Source: a virus. Taken from it: a stretch of DNA of 64,000 nucleotides. Position 1 is the stretch's first letter. Every line of letters begins with the position of its first letter. This document shows, one piece after another, positions 5,041 through 55,014 of the stretch. The DNA is taken from the UHGV virus genome UHGV-0141439; one strand, written 5' to 3'. The translations under genes were made by a program, and so were the position numbers. The notes below the pieces were generated by a model. The model made no database searches, was not told the origin of the DNA, and worked only from the letters and a program-made list of their open reading frames with translations.

Positions 5041-5202
5041 AAGCATCCTCAAAGGTCGATCTGTCAGGTATCGAAAGGAAGATTTTCGGGAGATTGTGAT
5101 TTTGGATGAAGGAGGGGGAATCCATAAAATGCACTTGCGCACAGTGCAACAGTGCGCTATAGTTATGGCATTCGGTAATCATCACGGAGGATCAAATGAC
5201 TA

Positions 5203-5505
5203 ATGACCAAAAAAATTAACATAAAGGATTTCAGGGATGCGTGGCTTGATGATTTTTTTGAATTTTCAACACCACATAGAAAGATACCTCCTGATATTCA
5301 TATGACATTGTCACGGAAGTTGGACATTATCAATGCCGCAACTACCTGTAAGGATTTAAGATCACCACCAGGTAATCGGTATGAGGAACTGTCAGGGAAG
5401 CTAAATGGCTATTCATCAGTAAGGGTGAATAAGCAATATAGGTTAATTTTTAAGTGGGTTAACGGAAAGGCCGAGGACTTGTATCTCGACCCTCACAAAT
5501 ACTAA
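5203..5505 (+). CDS. higB: HigB-family toxin (plasmid maintenance system killer, RelE/ParE fold)
   Basis: 100 aa; C-terminal pattern SVRVNKQYRLIFKWVNGKAEDLYLDPHKY is typical of HigB-like toxins; antitoxin follows. Confidence 0.75.
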   Translation: MTKKINIKDFRDAWLDDFFEFSTPHRKIPPDIHMTLSRKLDIINAATTCKDLRSPPGNRYEELSGKLNGYSSVRVNKQYRLIFKWVNGKAEDLYLDPHKY

Positions 5506-5575
5506 AACAGATACCCGGTTACGGACCGGGTTCTGACCAGAGTCCACTTAATACGCACGCTAGTAAGGGCAAAAA

Positions 5576-5914
5576 ATGAAACAGGCAACCAGAAAACCGA
5601 CGACCGTAGGTGATATCCTTCTGTACGAATACCTGGAGCCGTTAGAGCTGAAGATCAACGAGTTAGCAGAAATACTTCATGTTCATCGTAACACCGTAAG
5701 TGCTCTTGTTAATAATAATCGTAAGCTAACGATGGATATGGCATATCGCCTGGCAAAAGCATTCGATACTTCTGTAGATTTTTGGATTAATCTTCAGACC
5801 GCAGTAGATCTGTGGGAAGTCGAAAATGATATGCGCGTTCAGGAAGAGTTAAGTCGTATCAATACTGCTGAAAAATTTATTTCTCAGCGGAACCTGAATA
5901 AAAAAGCAGCCTGA
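5576..5914 (+). CDS. higA: HigA-family antitoxin, XRE-type HTH
   Basis: 112 aa; HTH segment LAEILHVHRNTVSALVNNNRKLTMDMAYRLAKAF...FWINLQ; immediately downstream of higB. Confidence 0.75.
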   Translation: MKQATRKPTTVGDILLYEYLEPLELKINELAEILHVHRNTVSALVNNNRKLTMDMAYRLAKAFDTSVDFWINLQTAVDLWEVENDMRVQEELSRINTAEKFISQRNLNKKAA

Positions 5915-5936
5915 TATAGTAAAACACATACAAAAA

Positions 5937-5964
5937 GCCCACTTAGCAAGTGGGCTTTCCTTTG
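5937..5964 (+). terminator. Rho-independent terminator after higA
   Basis: GCCCACTT-AGC-AAGTGGGC hairpin followed by TTTCCTTTG. Confidence 0.6.
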
Positions 5965-5970
5965 TAATTA

Positions 5971-6171
5971 ATGAACATTAAACCTATCCGTACAGAACAA
6001 GATTATGAGGCCGCACTGCGTGCGGTCGAACCGATGTTCGATAACGAACCGGAAATGAATACTCCGGAAGGTGATTTCTTTGAGGTTATGAGTCTTCTCA
6101 TTGAGGAGTACGAGAAGAAACATTACCCAATTCAGCCACCATCACCTGTTGAATCTTTTAACTATCCATAA
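5971..6171 (+). pseudogene. Orphan N-terminal fragment of a YgjM/HigA-type antitoxin (no HTH domain)
   Basis: 66 aa (IRTEQDYEAALRAVEPMF...LIEEYEKKHYPI) resembles the N-terminal half of HigA-type antitoxins; the reading frame stops before any HTH and AT-rich DNA follows. Confidence 0.35.
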
Positions 6172-6192
6172 TAAAAGTAATCAGGATAAGCT

Positions 6193-6921
6193 ATGATGTC
6201 AGAAAAAGTTACAGATAATCCGTCTATAAATGAAACAGAACTAAAATCATTTTCTGAAATAATAAAAGATAAAATATTTAACAAGGTTTTTGCATATGTT
6301 GTCATTTCTTTTCTAATTTTTAACTGGAAGGATATTTTAATTATATTAAAGTCAAAGGACGACATCCTATATACATTATCTATTGTTTTTGTTGGTGGTA
6401 ATGTCCCGTTCTTTGATAATTGGATTGTATCCCCGTGGGTTTATCACGTTGTAATCCCATTTGTTTATGGAGTATTTGCATCTGTGTTAGCTCCTATTCT
6501 CACACTGAAGATATCTAAGCTAACAAGTAAATTATACACTGAAATAAGATATTTAGATGAAGCTGCTGATTATGATAAAAGAATAGAATTGCAAAGAAAG
6601 AAAACAAAGTTAAATCAAGCAACCAATGACGCTAAATATTCAAAACAAATCTTAGATGAAAATGAAAATAAACTTAATGACCTAGCTAAGAAACAGCGAG
6701 AAATTTGCGGCGCGATAAAACTATTGCATACTGATGTTGGCAGTATTATTGAGCTATATAAAAATAAGGGGGTTAGCATTGAATCTCCGCAAGATTTATG
6801 TGATTTTATAGTCGCTATAAAAAGCACATCATTCTATAATGATGACAAGCATTTTAATAAATTGGTGTCTGATATTTCCAGTTTGTTTGATAATACTGGA
6901 ATTGATCTTTCAAAAAAATGA
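6193..6921 (+). CDS. AT-rich membrane protein with C-terminal coiled coil (possible abortive-infection/exclusion protein)
   Basis: 242 aa; three hydrophobic helices then a K/E-rich coiled coil; local GC far below the flanking DNA. Confidence 0.5.
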   Translation: MMSEKVTDNPSINETELKSFSEIIKDKIFNKVFAYVVISFLIFNWKDILIILKSKDDILYTLSIVFVGGNVPFFDNWIVSPWVYHVVIPFVYGVFASVLAPILTLKISKLTSKLYTEIRYLDEAADYDKRIELQRKKTKLNQATNDAKYSKQILDENENKLNDLAKKQREICGAIKLLHTDVGSIIELYKNKGVSIESPQDLCDFIVAIKSTSFYNDDKHFNKLVSDISSLFDNTGIDLSKK

Positions 6922-6928
6922 AAGCCCA

Positions 6929-6966
6929 GCATAAACTACTAGGCTATGTGTGGTTTATGCTTTTTT
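6929..6966. terminator. Bidirectional hairpin terminator between convergent genes
   Basis: GCATAAAC-N16-GTTTATGC followed by TTTTTT on the + strand and preceded by an A-run. Confidence 0.5.
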
Positions 6967-8148
6967 CACGTACTCTATAAACATCTTCTCAGCCTGTTCT
7001 TGTGGCGTTCCAGCCATGACAAGCGCATCAATGAACGCCTGCTTCTTCAGTGCGAACTGATCGGCAAGGCGTTGCTGAAGTTCCTTATTTTTCTGTTTCT
7101 CACGTTGCAAGGCCGCTTCTTTTGCAGCCGCCCGTTTTTTCTGTGCGTCTGACAACTTTCTGGCCCTGGTCAATTGGTCACGTAGCTTGTCGATCTTGCC
7201 GTTGTCCTTTGCCAGTTTTGTACTTAAAGCTGCCTGGCGTTTCTGATAGAGCCTCCATTCGCGTTTGGCGGCTTCAACGTTCGTTTTACTGCTACGATTG
7301 CGATTAAACTCCTTCTCGTCTTCTTTTGAGAAGTGTTTAGTTGTACGGCGGCGATCGTCACCAAATGCAATTTGCGTTGCAGCCTTTTGTAGCGCACGAG
7401 CAATACTCATTTGCCAACTGGCGGACTGTAACCGCGTCATTGAGTGGATCACGTGTTTACAGGCGACGCCTTGCAGCTTCGGGTTGCGAACTTTTGGATA
7501 GGCGTATTCTTTTGGCGGTGCCAGGGCAAAGTTACCCGCAGTGGCGATGTAACGATACCAGTATTGATGACGACCACAGTCACAATCGAAAGACACTCGC
7601 CCGGCGCACAGTGATTTAGTGATTTTGAGAGCTGATTTATCGTCTTCTGCGATGTCATCAACCATCTGATCCCATTCTTCAAAGCGTATCCGGACGATAT
7701 GGTGCTGGTGGACGGATATATCCGATGCTTCTACGCGGATATTAATCACATTGTGGCGAAGAGATACGGGGGTAGCTCTTTTGATACCAGATCCGTCATC
7801 CACGGCGTTATTTGCACGCTTAATATCGATTGCCTGGCTGGATGCCACCAGCTGGGCGTATGTGATGCCAGCCGTCTTGCTGTCATATTTTTCGCGCGTT
7901 TTACTCCGTAGCTTTTCGAAACCTTTCAGGTCGTCTCGCGTGAAGAACGTGCCGCCTTTTTTCTTCCCTAACTTGAGAATATCTTCGGCGGATTTGTTCC
8001 TCAGTCTACCTGGCGTCAGCGTCCGGTGAGCTTGTCGGCGCTTACGGGTTTGTTCTTTCCTGATAATCTCGAATAAACGCGTGAAGTCCTTAGAGGACAG
8101 GCCGTCAGTGATATAGCGCCCGTCCTGGTTTTTCAGGAAATCAGGCAT
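6955..8148 (-). CDS. SWIM-type zinc-finger protein with basic coiled-coil C-terminus
   Basis: 397 aa; CDCGRHQY...CKHVIH fits the CxCxnCxH SWIM pattern. Confidence 0.45.
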   Translation of the reverse strand: MPDFLKNQDGRYITDGLSSKDFTRLFEIIRKEQTRKRRQAHRTLTPGRLRNKSAEDILKLGKKKGGTFFTRDDLKGFEKLRSKTREKYDSKTAGITYAQLVASSQAIDIKRANNAVDDGSGIKRATPVSLRHNVINIRVEASDISVHQHHIVRIRFEEWDQMVDDIAEDDKSALKITKSLCAGRVSFDCDCGRHQYWYRYIATAGNFALAPPKEYAYPKVRNPKLQGVACKHVIHSMTRLQSASWQMSIARALQKAATQIAFGDDRRRTTKHFSKEDEKEFNRNRSSKTNVEAAKREWRLYQKRQAALSTKLAKDNGKIDKLRDQLTRARKLSDAQKKRAAAKEAALQREKQKNKELQQRLADQFALKKQAFIDALVMAGTPQEQAEKMFIEYVKKA

Positions 8149-50822: not shown

Positions 50823-52505
50823 TTAATTGCTCATCACAAATTTTGCAAAGTTTATTAACTGTTCTGGCGTCCAGTTTTCCGGATCGTCACCGGACGACAA
50901 CGGCGCGGATTCGTACATACCATGCTCGTTGTTTTGCTCTGATTCATTCGCCTTAAACTCTTTGATCATGGTGTTGAGAGTGTCATCGTCGATGTGCAAC
51001 TGCTCAGTGAACAGATAACGCATAAACGCGTCGCTACCAGCCAGTTTCGGGTTGTTCTGGATCTGGTCCATAATTTGGGAGATGACAGCAACAAAGTTGG
51101 CGCGTGCATCCAGTTCTCGGTTTTCCTCTTCCTGGATAGCAGTGTTCATTGAGTTGAATTGCACGTCATAAGGGCGGTTTGTTTCGGTGTAAACCTTGCC
51201 GTATTTATAAGCGAGGTGAATGTCCAGAAGCCGATAAATAGTTCGCTGGGCGGCCTGTCTGATCCAGTTCGCACGCAATGCAGCCTGGATAGCAGTTTGC
51301 TGCCAGCCGCCTTCTCCAAGCCCTCCGCTCATCTGATCAGCCCAGCCAAGCATTGTTGCGTCAATGCCGAGGCTTGCAGCAAGCTGCCGGAGGTGAAACA
51401 TAACGTCTTCGATACCACTGATATCTGCGGGTATGGATTGCGTATCAATGGTGATGCCGTTCTTCCCGTCTCCCATAACAGGTATCAGATGGTTAAGCAC
51501 AGTCGGAATAGCGTTGGCATTAATCGACCTTTGCGCCACCAGGTCACTATGACGCTTCAATGCCTGGCTGACGCCACGCGTATAGTTCGCCGCATTAACC
51601 GGGTCCAGTGTGTTCGTCGTAAGAGCAATCAGGCGGTCAATTTTGGCTGCATTATTTCGCGTTGATTTCAGCGCGGCGAGCGAAGCACATAAATTAAGGT
51701 AAGGTTCATAGCTGTATTCCAGGAATGAAGTTCCGTAATTCTGCGTCTCCATTAACGGCTTATCAGCCTGATCACTTAACAGTGAATACCCTTTTGTACC
51801 GTAGCTAACCGGAATAACCTTATGCTGCGGCGTCCAATACGGGTTTTTCATGGAAACAAGATTCCACGGTTCGGTTATTACCCTGCGCAAACTATGCGTA
51901 TCCAGAATGTAATCACCACTGAAACCGACCAGCTGGCTACCGCGATAAAATTCCTGGACGAAGTGTGGAAGAGTGTAATAACTGGATTCAATGCCAGTTA
52001 TCCCTCTGCCCTGTTCAGCATAAGGTCGGACATAAGACACCCCAAAGATCGCCATAATCATGGCCCATGAAGGAAGTCCGTCATTAATCATTGCCCCCAA
52101 ATCAGCTGTTAACTCTTCACACCTACTTACCGCCTCGGCATCGGAACCATCTTTTGGCGAAAGCATGAATGCCAGCCCGGTTTTCTTTGAAGGCGCAAGC
52201 GCATGTGCAATATGAATGTTTAAAGCCGTTGAGATAGTCGGGCTTTTAGCCATCGTTTCCAGGATGTTGTACTTTTGCAGGCGCTCGCCGGGCAGTTCAG
52301 CGGATAAAGAAATTGAATCTGCTGCACTCGTCATGCCATCGCTGTTGCCACCCAGGATGCCTGGACGTAAAGCGGACAGGCCGGAACGAGCAACGACACT
52401 ATGCCCGCTCGTAAAAACGACCGGATCGGCGGGCGTAACATCACCACCGTTGAAGGCTTTCTTCAATGCCGACAGAAAGCCTTTGTTTTTGTCTTTCGTT
52501 GCCAT
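50823..52505 (-). CDS. Hypothetical 560-aa protein; portal-like candidate by size and position
   Basis: ATG after a GGTGA RBS; no diagnostic motif recognised. Confidence 0.35.
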   Translation of the reverse strand: MATKDKNKGFLSALKKAFNGGDVTPADPVVFTSGHSVVARSGLSALRPGILGGNSDGMTSAADSISLSAELPGERLQKYNILETMAKSPTISTALNIHIAHALAPSKKTGLAFMLSPKDGSDAEAVSRCEELTADLGAMINDGLPSWAMIMAIFGVSYVRPYAEQGRGITGIESSYYTLPHFVQEFYRGSQLVGFSGDYILDTHSLRRVITEPWNLVSMKNPYWTPQHKVIPVSYGTKGYSLLSDQADKPLMETQNYGTSFLEYSYEPYLNLCASLAALKSTRNNAAKIDRLIALTTNTLDPVNAANYTRGVSQALKRHSDLVAQRSINANAIPTVLNHLIPVMGDGKNGITIDTQSIPADISGIEDVMFHLRQLAASLGIDATMLGWADQMSGGLGEGGWQQTAIQAALRANWIRQAAQRTIYRLLDIHLAYKYGKVYTETNRPYDVQFNSMNTAIQEEENRELDARANFVAVISQIMDQIQNNPKLAGSDAFMRYLFTEQLHIDDDTLNTMIKEFKANESEQNNEHGMYESAPLSSGDDPENWTPEQLINFAKFVMSN

Positions 52506-52589
52506 GAATCACCGCGAATTGTTTCCAGTTTCGCGGCAGCATAATCAGTATGTGATTTGATAGGAGAGTTTTATTGGTGCTGTTAATGA

Positions 52590-52922
52590 TTACTTACACG
52601 CTTCCCTGCCCACATAGTCAGCGATGGAACCACTTACAATCCCCACCATTTTGGGATCAGGTTTTGAATTTTTCATCTGTTCAAGCGTCTCCCCAGAACC
52701 AAGATACTTCACTTCATTTGTCATGCAATTATATATTCTCTTCGAATATGCTGTCCCAGATGGGCCTTCCCTTTTTGTAATGATAGTTTTATATTCACCT
52801 TCACGACCAATATCCAGCACTGTATAAGTAGCTTTTGGATCAGAAGGGATTTTTATCTTATAGGGCGCAGCACAAACTGATGCAGAAGCTAATAAAGCAC
52901 AAACCAGGATTATATTTCTCAT
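52590..52922 (-). CDS. Small secreted protein in the AT-rich cassette
   Basis: 110 aa with signal peptide MRNIILVCALLASASVCAAP and two Cys in the mature part; a GPSGTAY segment weakly recalls the MliC/PliC SxSGAxY motif. Confidence 0.45.
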   Translation of the reverse strand: MRNIILVCALLASASVCAAPYKIKIPSDPKATYTVLDIGREGEYKTIITKREGPSGTAYSKRIYNCMTNEVKYLGSGETLEQMKNSKPDPKMVGIVSGSIADYVGREACK

Positions 52923-52966
52923 AACTATACTCCATGTTATAAATTATCAAAGCTAAGTAAGTAAAA

Positions 52967-53524
52967 CTAATCTGGATCAACAATAAGTTGTGAAACCTTC
53001 GCTGCAAGTCTTATATAGCGTTCAGCTTCATTTCTGGTGATTTCAAAATCCAGAAAGTGCGCGGCTTCATTTCTTAGCGAGCGAAGCCGTTTTAACAGCA
53101 AAGCAGCGGAATCTTCAAGTTTTCCTTCTTGAATCAACCAGTCAATGAATAGTTCTGGATTCCGTTTCGGCTTTAACCCTCCCTGTATAAAACCAGAGCG
53201 CCCGGCAGCCTCCTCTACCATCAACCATGACTCCATAATAGCAGCTCTAGGTGAAAAATCAGCAATTCTCTCTAATTGTGCGATTTTATTTATATATTCA
53301 GAGTTATTATTACCATTGTTAATATTTTTATTCCCAACTGATGCATCTGTTGCTAATACTTCTGCTGCGGTTAGTCCCGCATTAAACTCAGCTTCAGCTG
53401 CTCCAATCTTGAATCTACTCAGACGTACTATTAACTCCTTAATATCAACCCCATACTTATTAACAAACCACACAAACACCAATGGCCATGCAAGAGCTGA
53501 AACCAAATCTGTAAATGATGACAT
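52967..53524 (-). CDS. HEPN-motif protein with N-terminal membrane anchor (candidate Abi/defence RNase)
   Basis: 185 aa; hydrophobic N-terminus; C-terminal LRSLRNEAAHFLDF contains an Rx4H motif; own TATAAT and GAGGA RBS; AT-rich. Confidence 0.45.
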   Translation of the reverse strand: MSSFTDLVSALAWPLVFVWFVNKYGVDIKELIVRLSRFKIGAAEAEFNAGLTAAEVLATDASVGNKNINNGNNNSEYINKIAQLERIADFSPRAAIMESWLMVEEAAGRSGFIQGGLKPKRNPELFIDWLIQEGKLEDSAALLLKRLRSLRNEAAHFLDFEITRNEAERYIRLAAKVSQLIVDPD

Positions 53525-53649
53525 CGGTTATCCTCATTCATTATATTCTCAGCTAGTTTACATATTATTAAACAGGAACAAAAATGAATTATGCGCCCAT
53601 CTTCAGATATGTTATGAACGCACAGAAAGAGCATTAAGTTACATTGATG

Positions 53650-55014
53650 TTACCCAACAGAGGTTGACTCAAACATAGAAAAAATTAACCCTTTACCTTC
53701 GCCAAACTCAGTCTCAATTTCATCAGAAACGGCAGATAAAATGCTACGCAGATCGACATCTCCGCCGCCGAACATATCGCCTAACGCTTGTTGCTGGTGA
53801 ATAAGCTCATCGTTAATTTTTTGCGCCAGTTTCTTGAAAGCAGCCCCCATACGCTTAGCGCTTCTGTTGTTGGCAACAATAAACAGAGCAAGCGCTTCCG
53901 CTTCCGGAGTGCTATCTCCAAACAATCCGCGCTGTGCGATCACCTCTTCTACTGCCTGACCGTTATCTTTTGCTTCACGAACAAGGTTAATTGCTTCCTG
54001 TAGCGCGGCAATAGCCTGTTTATCCAGCCCATTCAATTGCTCTATGCCGTCTACTAGTCCGGTTACCGTGTCATGGTGAACATCGCCTGAAAGTGACTGC
54101 ATTTGCGCAAAATCGCTGGCTGCCGTATTTAATGCGGTAAGGATGTTACGCATTTCCGGATCTGGCTCTTCCGCCACCAGCCGGACAAGCCTTTCATCCT
54201 TGTACGCTTTGGCAAAAATTGCATTCTGGATGCGGTCGATAAGTTGTTTCGTTGGACGCCCATCGGCAGTAAGCAAACCTGCCGTCGCCGTATCACCTAT
54301 TTCGCGCAGAAACGCACGAATAAACGCATCATTGGACCGCGCCAGTAGATTCCCATCATCTGAAGGATTAAATAGCGCCATGACGCTCTCAGTGAGAAAT
54401 TGCGCATCCGCATACGCTTTTTCACTTGCAGCCATCTCTTGCAGATCGCTGATGTTTGAATCGCGGGCAAATTGTGCGCGGTCTACATCTGTGAGTCTTT
54501 CGCGCACCAATACGGGCATAGACATTTGTGAAATGTCGTCAGGATTCAGACCAAACTCTTTTGCATGATCGATCAGGTACTGGCGATATTCATCCGCCTG
54601 CCCTTGCTCATAGGCACGCCAGATACCCATGCTCCTTCCGTTGCCGGATTCAACAACGTTGTCCGGACCAACTATCGGCGCTCCGTGGCTGCTCATGCCG
54701 GAATCCGTTAATTGTGCCGGGCGTAAATTGGAGGCAATACGGTTAACCTGGAGTTTGCTGGATAGCCGTGTACGGTCACGTGGCTGGAGTTCTTCCGGGA
54801 AGGCCGGATTAATCGTACCGTCAAGGTTGTTCGAAATGATCAGGCTGCTGGCATCAACGACCTTAAAAGCCGTCTTTACCTCTGCCCCTTTACTGGTGAC
54901 TACGTAACTACTGCGCCCCTGGCGTGTTTCTCGCCTCTCTAATGAAGAAACCAGCGCAATAACACTGTTAATGTCTGCTGCTTCGGATATCGCGGAAGTA
55001 ACTGACTTGTTCAA
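53650..55014 (-). CDS. Hypothetical 454-aa protein (DarA-operon-like position)
   Basis: Track ORF; no motif recognised. Confidence 0.4.
   Translation of the reverse strand: MNKSVTSAISEAADINSVIALVSSLERRETRQGRSSYVVTSKGAEVKTAFKVVDASSLIISNNLDGTINPAFPEELQPRDRTRLSSKLQVNRIASNLRPAQLTDSGMSSHGAPIVGPDNVVESGNGRSMGIWRAYEQGQADEYRQYLIDHAKEFGLNPDDISQMSMPVLVRERLTDVDRAQFARDSNISDLQEMAASEKAYADAQFLTESVMALFNPSDDGNLLARSNDAFIRAFLREIGDTATAGLLTADGRPTKQLIDRIQNAIFAKAYKDERLVRLVAEEPDPEMRNILTALNTAASDFAQMQSLSGDVHHDTVTGLVDGIEQLNGLDKQAIAALQEAINLVREAKDNGQAVEEVIAQRGLFGDSTPEAEALALFIVANNRSAKRMGAAFKKLAQKINDELIHQQQALGDMFGGGDVDLRSILSAVSDEIETEFGEGKGLIFSMFESTSVG

Follow-up and report, generated by a model that had tools for sequence, protein, structure and literature searches.

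Do two adjacent genes in a low-GC insert of a phage-plasmid make up one defence system, or do they merely share a site? This question is raised by a 64,000-nucleotide stretch of virus genome UHGV-0141439, analysed here at its full length (the window), in which a minus-strand pair of open reading frames (ORFs) lies within a 1.1-kb insert of low guanine-plus-cytosine (GC) content, between ddrB and the portal gene. An earlier reading made from the letters of the DNA (the sequence-only reading) had named the pair, a membrane-anchored HEPN protein and a small secreted one, as its top candidate for an undescribed defence or exclusion system. The location and both ORFs were as it described, and alignment breakpoints against the empty-site plasmid L172 make its coordinates good to a few bases:

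52559-53668 (no strand assigned): inserted low-GC cassette, delimited by homology breaks against L172, by GC content and by its match to phage D6.
52967-53524 (minus strand): ORF for the 185-amino-acid (aa) membrane-anchored HEPN protein (D6 orf24; WP-TM plus DUF4145; phrog_18019, E 3e-127).
52590-52922 (minus strand): ORF for the 110-aa secreted protein (D6 orf23; phrog_13843, E 1.6e-66).

By sequence comparison, these are two independent single-gene modules that are adjacent by chance in the D6 lineage. None of 80 genome loci from across Bacteria that carry a homologue of the 185-aa protein (HEPN-TM) has a relative of the small protein within 6 kb, and the island copies of HEPN-TM in Salmonella Typhimurium are also without it. 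Conversely, HEPN-TM is present in 2 of 80 viral loci of the small protein in IMG/VR, both of them on D6-like contigs, and the small protein stands without HEPN-TM in 77 of 79 viral loci. Nor did a conserved neighbour of HEPN-TM emerge from 75 loci: clustering of 424 flanking ORFs gave no family common to more than 3-4 loci, and Pfam and PADLOC scans of 123 immediate neighbours found integrases at 3 loci, a cyclase of the cyclic-oligonucleotide-based antiphage signalling system (CBASS) at 2 and single instances of others, none recurrent. The functional pair that had been proposed does not survive this survey, in which co-occurrence is limited to the D6 lineage and each family stands alone in dozens of contexts elsewhere; adjacency in one lineage is insufficient to establish a system.

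Two candidate formats for the pair were rejected. A conserved two-gene defence operon was discarded on the co-occurrence counts (0/80 and 2/80, with D6-like positives only). A HEPN-MNT or type II toxin-antitoxin pair was discarded on the lack of a co-conserved cytoplasmic antitoxin gene, the adjoining gene in the window encoding an exported protein.

The evidence supports horizontal acquisition of the cassette as an accessory insertion at a variable ddrB-prt junction, flanked as follows:

53650-55014 (minus strand): ddrB-like gene, 454 aa, with a ddrB-ParB domain, the upstream flank (PF18763, E 1.8e-42; D6 orf25, 'similar to P1 ddrB').
50823-52505 (minus strand): portal gene prt, the downstream flank (phrog_1497 portal, E 8e-229; D6 orf22).

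Aligned with L172, a related plasmid whose junction is empty, the sequence loses homology at 52558/52559 and regains it at 53668/53669. The point of resumption, 53669, falls within the final ddrB codons, and the cassette has replaced ~51 bp of the ddrB-prt junction of its relatives, including the last ~13 codons of ddrB. The insert has a GC content of 0.385 compared with 0.475 for the window, 0.497 for ddrB and 0.493 for prt, which bears out its reported AT-richness; both of its genes are similar in composition (~0.40), and just 2% of the 1110-bp segments of the window are as GC-poor, the sole other such stretch lying at ~5200-7400. Presence or absence among relatives and a contrast in GC are two of the marks by which a moron is recognised (Juhala 2000; PMC3594210), and both are found here, with ~100 empty-site relatives and a GC of 0.385 against 0.49 in the flanks.

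The replicon that hosts the cassette is, from its sequence, a D6-like (P1 group 2) phage-plasmid. The region is 99.4% identical to Escherichia phage D6 (25243-26333), where the 185-aa gene is named orf24 ('DUF4145 domain-containing protein') and the 110-aa gene orf23 ('hypothetical'), and the gene order is lydA-lydB-hdf-darA-ddrA-ddrB-[185]-[110]-prt-pro. Domains of the DarA_N/DarA_C, DdrA and ddrB-ParB families on one side and of the portal on the other, together with the empty-site relatives, agree with the placement of an accessory insertion between DarA-type genes and the portal. P1 does carry different genes here, as had been noted, with hxr, isaB, IS1, isaA, ssb, lyz and lydDE between ddrB and an inverted pro-prt. 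The ddrB homologue of the window, at 454 aa, extends scarcely beyond its ddrB-ParB domain; P1 ddrB is ~995 aa (L174 7543-10530).

A 2.8-kb query across the cassette matched 120 plasmids, 14 of which carry it. The cassette is 99.4-100% identical in 12 plasmids of E. coli and Salmonella, most of ~90 kb, and 92-95% identical in 2 more. These two divergent Salmonella records, pSa1423-160k (L002) and NZ_MK356557.1, have many very short annotated ORFs, a pattern typical of long-read sequences with uncorrected indel errors and not of real divergence. In ~100 plasmids both flanks are ~91% identical and ddrB is separated from prt by ~64 bp. Of 5,426 complete E. coli genomes, 9 have the cassette, in each case on a plasmid of ~90 kb, and both genes are together in every carrier (14 plasmids, phage D6 and 9 E. 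coli genomes). The ddrB-prt junction also holds other cargo in plasmids of the D6/P1 group, which marks it as a recurrent insertion point: pMUB-MIN14-1 (L171 2536-3180) has hicA and the gene for a 143-aa partner there, and pRHB16-C08_5 (L173 2460-4149) has an IS200/IS605 tnpA-tnpB.

The 185-aa protein is a member of the WP-TM/DUF4145 HEPN family, an architecture described computationally by Anantharaman, Makarova, Burroughs, Koonin and Aravind (2013; Biol Direct 8:15; PMC3710099). These authors gave as its signature a 'single TM helix with strictly conserved WP signature' (TM, transmembrane; example gi 153825856, from Vibrio cholerae), predicted that the HEPN domain is cytoplasmic and mediates stimulus-dependent RNA degradation, and found the WP-TM segment fused to receiver domains as well. 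The window protein has the N-terminal Trp-Pro helix, the C-terminal HEPN domain overlapping DUF4145 and the active-site layout with Rx4H; it also shares the length (~190 aa) and stand-alone occurrence of the family, from which it shows no structural difference. Its parts are:

53459-53512 (minus strand): N-terminal hydrophobic helix, residues 5-22, with the invariant Trp13-Pro14 (53483-53488), from Kyte-Doolittle hydropathy and conservation.
52979-53305 (minus strand): HEPN domain, residues 74-182, with four main helices and an insert helix.
53057-53074 (minus strand): Rx4H catalytic motif R151-N-E-A-A-H156 at the end of HEPN helix 3 (138-156), from conservation and the HEPN definition.

The anchor and the RNEAAH motif noted in the sequence-only reading are both borne out by conservation among 151 representatives of <50% mutual identity. 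Trp13 and Pro14, in the hydrophobic anchor, are present in all 151; in the RNEAAH motif, Arg151 is found in 150, His156 in 149 and Asn152 in 140, and Glu104 and Trp100 are each found in 149. Glu98 and Glu104 lie within the second HEPN helix (92-113), a layout that fits the published definition of the HEPN active site, and an AlphaFold2 model (predicted local distance difference test score, pLDDT, 82) gives the HEPN domain with four main helices. The sole hydrophobic segment, at residues 5-21, scores 1.71 on the Kyte-Doolittle scale over 17 residues (family median 1.89). The 19 residues following the helix contain 5 Lys/Arg versus 2 Asp/Glu by the positive-inside count, the part that might reach the periplasm is ~4-6 residues long, and there is no cysteine in the protein. 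A profile search of 1.84 billion representatives returned 4,073 clusters at E ≤ 1e-10, the best 150 being almost all 177-210 aa in length.

The match of the 185-aa protein to Pfam DUF4145 (E 7e-4) is under the gathering score, although PF13643 is on record for most homologues, and Pfam and NCBIfam scans yielded sub-threshold DUF4145 and RiboL-PSP HEPN matches only. No PADLOC-DB v2 family matched it at E ≤ 1, a PDB sequence search returned no meaningful match for it or for the 110-aa protein, and a literature search turned up no experimental work on the family. 'Undescribed' is thus half right: the family is absent from PADLOC-DB v2, but the architecture has been on record since 2013. What is new for the family is its carriage by a P1-type phage-plasmid, its size, its occurrence in integrons, satellites and prophages, and the lack of a partner gene.

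At two Vibrionaceae loci HEPN-TM lies within arrays of attC/VCR-type repeats (VCR, Vibrio cholerae repeat). In L054 the HEPN ORF (5974-6522) is the sole ORF between attC-type repeats (GTTAGGC end at ~5940; 6519-6637) in an array of 11 copies, and in L072 similar repeats lie upstream of the HEPN ORF; it is at these two loci only that homologues have the form of an integron gene cassette, an ORF bounded by attC in an array. Because L054 (1898-11869) and L072 (5821-7341), from Photobacterium kagoshimensis and Vibrio sp. EA2, are near-identical in sequence upstream of the HEPN-TM gene, the same cassette circulates between these hosts. Two home-made attC detectors returned 0 and 3 matches and both missed the attC sites of L054 that can be recognised by eye; the window gave no attC-like site with a detector that had also missed those sites.

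Immediate neighbours of HEPN-TM are on its own strand in 102 of 123 cases. The family is rare in IMG/VR, with 11 loci. In four of these (L181-L184) its neighbours are a satellite-type primase gene (phrog_864) on one side and, on the other, capsid genes for a head maturation protease and a major head protein, an organisation reminiscent of capsid-forming phage satellites; at other loci it lies behind a P2 gpA-like gene (1 locus), inside a tail module (1) or behind replication genes. Among GenBank phages, D6 alone carries it. One assembly labelled Chryseobacterium sp. 18061 (L009) has HEPN-TM beside the 470-aa and 61-aa neighbours that it also has in L003, the Salmonella Typhimurium island, which suggests that the assembly is contaminated or mislabelled.

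The 110-aa protein is predicted to be exported by the Sec pathway and to fold in the periplasm. Two features of its gene carry this prediction:

52869-52922 (minus strand): predicted signal peptide, residues 1-18, cleavage VCA|AP (Kyte-Doolittle 2.33 at residues 4-20).
52596-52727 (minus strand): span from Cys66 (52725-52727) to Cys109 (52596-52598), a predicted disulfide, both cysteines being invariant in 39 sequences.

The cleavage site was placed by the -3/-1 rule. An N-terminal hydrophobic segment is present in all 39 aligned homologues, though its sequence varies, in keeping with the earlier description of an exported, cysteine-containing protein. In all, 108 homologues were found at E ≤ 1e-3, and scans of Pfam, NCBIfam and PADLOC assigned the protein to no family. 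The PADLOC check for a known defence system thus came back empty for both genes.

An AlphaFold2 model of the 110-aa protein (pLDDT 91.5) has five long beta-strands, a short helix and a C-terminal helix. Cys66 comes after the strand at 56-65 and Cys109 after the helix at 100-108, so that the disulfide, if formed as modelled, would tie the helix to the end of the strand. The modelled fold resembles those of Haemophilus influenzae protein E and Pseudomonas aeruginosa PseM, and it has the features of the Adhesin_E (PF16747) fold, a six-stranded antiparallel sheet with a C-terminal helix disulfide-linked to the end of beta4. At the level of sequence, Pfam Adhesin_E matched 1 of 39 family members (E 0.085), and hhalign of the small-protein family against the protein E family gave a probability of 53%, confined to 40 N-terminal columns that span the signal peptide and first strand. 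The weak MliC/PliC-like resemblance claimed for this protein is not supported, and identity with the MliC, PliC or Ivy lysozyme inhibitors was rejected for want of a sequence or fold match.

Relatives of the small protein number 135 in IMG/VR and are common in prophages of Enterobacterales and Pseudomonas. Their genes have a GC content below that of the flanks at 67 of 79 loci. At 39 of the 79 the gene directly precedes the tape-measure gene, and at 6 more a single gene stands between the two; at 8-9 loci it follows a CI-like repressor gene on the same strand, and at 12 it follows a baseplate gene at the end of the prophage. The slot upstream of the tape-measure gene is the one occupied in HK97 by gene 15, the original 'moron', which encodes a superinfection-exclusion protein (Cumby et al. 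2012; PMC3594210).

When would the two genes be expressed? The signals nearest the first gene, read directly from the sequence, are:

53531-53545 (minus strand): GAGGA ribosome-binding site (53531-53535) and TATAAT hexamer (53540-53545), upstream of the 185-aa gene.

GAGGA stands 6 nt ahead of the ATG of the 185-aa gene and GGAG 7 nt ahead of the start of the 110-aa gene, so that the ribosome-binding sites and the hexamer ascribed to the cassette are there; the promoter itself fares less well. The TATAAT at 53540-53545 is perfect but its -35 element is poor, and a scan of the region counted 5 promoter-like sites against 4.0 ± 1.8 in shuffled sequence, which is chance level. A promoter and terminator of its own, a further mark of a moron, are therefore represented here by this weak candidate, with no terminator-like site found in a scan of the cassette region. 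No P1 late-promoter box was found inside the cassette (coding strand) or from lydA to prt, and matches to the box were at chance level overall. Because the cassette lacks a terminator and no late-promoter box lies between lydA and prt, both genes are probably transcribed late, by read-through within the lydA-darA-ddrB-prt-pro unit; expression in the prophage state would rest on the weak TATAAT promoter. An inverted repeat at 52512-52536 (minus strand; CCGCGAA-n11-TTCGCGG, with no T-run) ends 6 nt upstream of the portal start codon, and because it recurs, slightly changed, in plasmids whose junction is empty, it is part of the leader of prt rather than of the cassette.

What, then, might the two modules do? 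The reading that we favour, with moderate confidence, is that the ddrB-prt junction has acquired horizontally a stand-alone abortive-infection HEPN RNase (ribonuclease) and an envelope-acting exclusion factor that work independently. The Trp-Pro helix would anchor the 185-aa protein in the inner membrane, with a long helix and flexible linker running from there to a HEPN domain in the cytoplasm whose Rx4H motif is intact. The protein would stay inactive until a signal arrived through the membrane segment, for example a perturbation of the envelope or inner membrane at phage entry or late in infection; pairing of HEPN domains would now create a composite active site that may cut tRNA, rRNA or mRNA, and translation would halt and the infection abort with no partner needed. 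Because the protein can exist as the product of a lone integron cassette, it could not depend on an antitoxin and would have to be self-restrained. The 110-aa protein would be a lysogenic-conversion factor acting on the envelope, most plausibly by blocking the entry of superinfecting phages.

Several observations weigh against this reading. Neither family has a known phenotype, and PADLOC-DB v2 holds no model that matches either protein. The hydrophobic segment of the 185-aa protein is short (~15 residues at Kyte-Doolittle 1.71) and contains a proline, so that monotopic or peripheral association is conceivable. Because defence genes are sparse near HEPN-TM homologues (the CBASS cyclase at 2 loci and few others among the 123 neighbours), guilt by association carries little weight except in mobile elements. 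In being soluble and periplasmic the small protein differs from HK97 gp15, a membrane protein, and its closest structural neighbours are an adhesin and a reported muramidase, with no known exclusion protein among them. Finally, the gap between the two genes is 44 bp, no terminator separates them, and they are always together in the D6 lineage, where cooperation is conceivable.

If HEPN-TM is a stand-alone defence, a very large family that has been catalogued but ignored would join the anti-phage repertoire and provide a rare case of a single transmembrane helix as the sensor of an RNase effector. We would extend the favoured reading only tentatively, and with more doubt than conviction, to the WP-TM/DUF4145 family as a whole, with its at least 4,000 clusters at 50% identity and its absence from the 2023 PADLOC database. 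It may be a widespread single-protein abortive-infection system in which the membrane helix senses disturbance of the inner membrane by phage that are entering or maturing, and D6 would carry it beside a new periplasmic exclusion family. The small protein is a good candidate for a new superinfection-exclusion family outside the coverage of Pfam. D6 and the empty-junction plasmids, with ~91% identity in the flanking genes, are natural comparison strains.

Among the alternatives, it is a real though minority possibility that peptidoglycan is the target of the small protein, which would then be a PseM-like muramidase or inhibit such an enzyme, or that the protein is a host-interaction factor like protein E, in either case with no part in exclusion. 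Its structural neighbours, protein E and PseM, point that way, but no relation emerges at the level of sequence, where the single Adhesin_E match and the N-terminal hhalign alignment described above are all that links them; the protein is ~50-70 residues shorter than either match, and its places behind a repressor and at the site of HK97 gp15 are those in which exclusion morons are typically found.

We consider it unlikely that HEPN-TM is a membrane RNase that responds to stress or another signal to regulate RNA stability, or a toxin that favours retention of mobile elements, rather than an anti-phage protein. In favour of this are the 'stimulus-dependent RNA degradation' proposed in PMC3710099, the fusion of WP-TM to receiver domains, the presence of hicA and its partner at the same junction of another plasmid, and the many chromosomal homologues that lie near housekeeping-type genes (DnaB, MutS, Amt). 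However, an antitoxin-like partner is found nowhere among the neighbours of HEPN-TM, its patchy recurrence in integron cassettes, satellites, prophages and a phage-plasmid is the pattern of a conflict gene, and the characterised single proteins with DUF4145 act against phages (RAZR and BxaP) or conjugative plasmids (Ishtar).

The sequence-only reading itself, by which the two genes would act together in defence or as a toxin, with the secreted protein as sensor or regulator of the membrane HEPN RNase, now seems very improbable. Adjacency on one strand with no terminator between the genes, their like GC content and their constant association in 14 plasmids, D6 and 9 E. coli genomes speak for it. 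Against this, the families are never together outside the D6 lineage, the HEPN protein occurs as a single-gene integron cassette and alone in satellites and prophages, the small protein is alone at nearly all of its viral loci, and ~4-6 residues are all of the HEPN protein that could face the periplasm. That the genes belong to the P1-type Dar antirestriction or capsid programme, as virion-packaged or morphogenetic components, is scarcely credible: their place inside the lydA-hdf-darA-ddrA-ddrB-prt-pro string and likely late co-transcription would fit, but ~100 close relatives with an intact junction, and P1, lack both, homologues occur in integrons and in chromosomes without nearby phage genes, and a predicted membrane anchor and export are incompatible with head packaging.

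The second low-GC island of the window, at 5203-6921, reaches a minimum GC of 0.329 and holds three genes:

5203-5505: HigB-like toxin gene (PF05015, E 4e-35).
5576-5914: antitoxin-like gene with a helix-turn-helix (HTH).
6193-6921: 242-aa ORF with hydrophobic stretches and no family match.

How do the two modules compare with known systems? Like protein E (PDB 3zh5) and PseM/TdeM (PDB 9m3l), the 110-aa protein combines an antiparallel sheet, a C-terminal helix tied by a disulfide to the end of a strand, and export to the envelope. It differs from both in being 50-70 residues shorter, in not being a lipoprotein and in having no significant sequence similarity to them, and none of their adhesin or muramidase residues could be mapped onto it. 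Relatives of the small protein have three things in common with the HK97 gp15 moron: a slot flanked by the tail chaperone genes and the tape-measure gene (at 39-45 of 79 viral loci), a GC content poorer than the flanks and an envelope protein as product. HK97 gp15, however, is a YebO-like inner-membrane protein, and the 110-aa protein is predicted to be soluble and periplasmic, with a cleavable signal peptide and an unrelated fold; its gene in the window adjoins the portal gene and not the tape-measure gene.

For HEPN-TM, the precedents among single-protein DUF4145 HEPN systems are RAZR and BxaP, which act against phages, and Ishtar, which acts against conjugative plasmids. Esos, a defence gene of a V. 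cholerae integron with 'only a HEPN-like domain', may or may not belong to the WP-TM/DUF4145 family. RAZR (PD-T7-4; Nature 2026, PMC13017515) is a single-protein abortive-infection RNase with a DUF4145 HEPN domain and an N-terminal Cys4 zinc finger, and it becomes active when it assembles around ring-forming phage proteins, portals among them. In place of the zinc finger the window protein, which is free of cysteine, has a membrane helix, and it matches no PADLOC model, PD-T7-4 included. Membership in RAZR/PD-T7-4 was accordingly rejected on its zero cysteines and on the lack of any PADLOC family at E ≤ 1.

HepS, from prophage Gifsy-1, has a HEPN domain of another family and is triggered by tail-tip proteins. 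In HepS, BxaP and Ishtar1 alike, a single HEPN nuclease encoded on a prophage or defence island both senses and executes, with no antitoxin. Their sensors are different, being soluble and answering to other triggers, and none is membrane-anchored, unlike the HEPN protein of the window. By analogy, the action that we propose for HEPN-TM would follow the logic of RAZR, BxaP, Ishtar and HepS.

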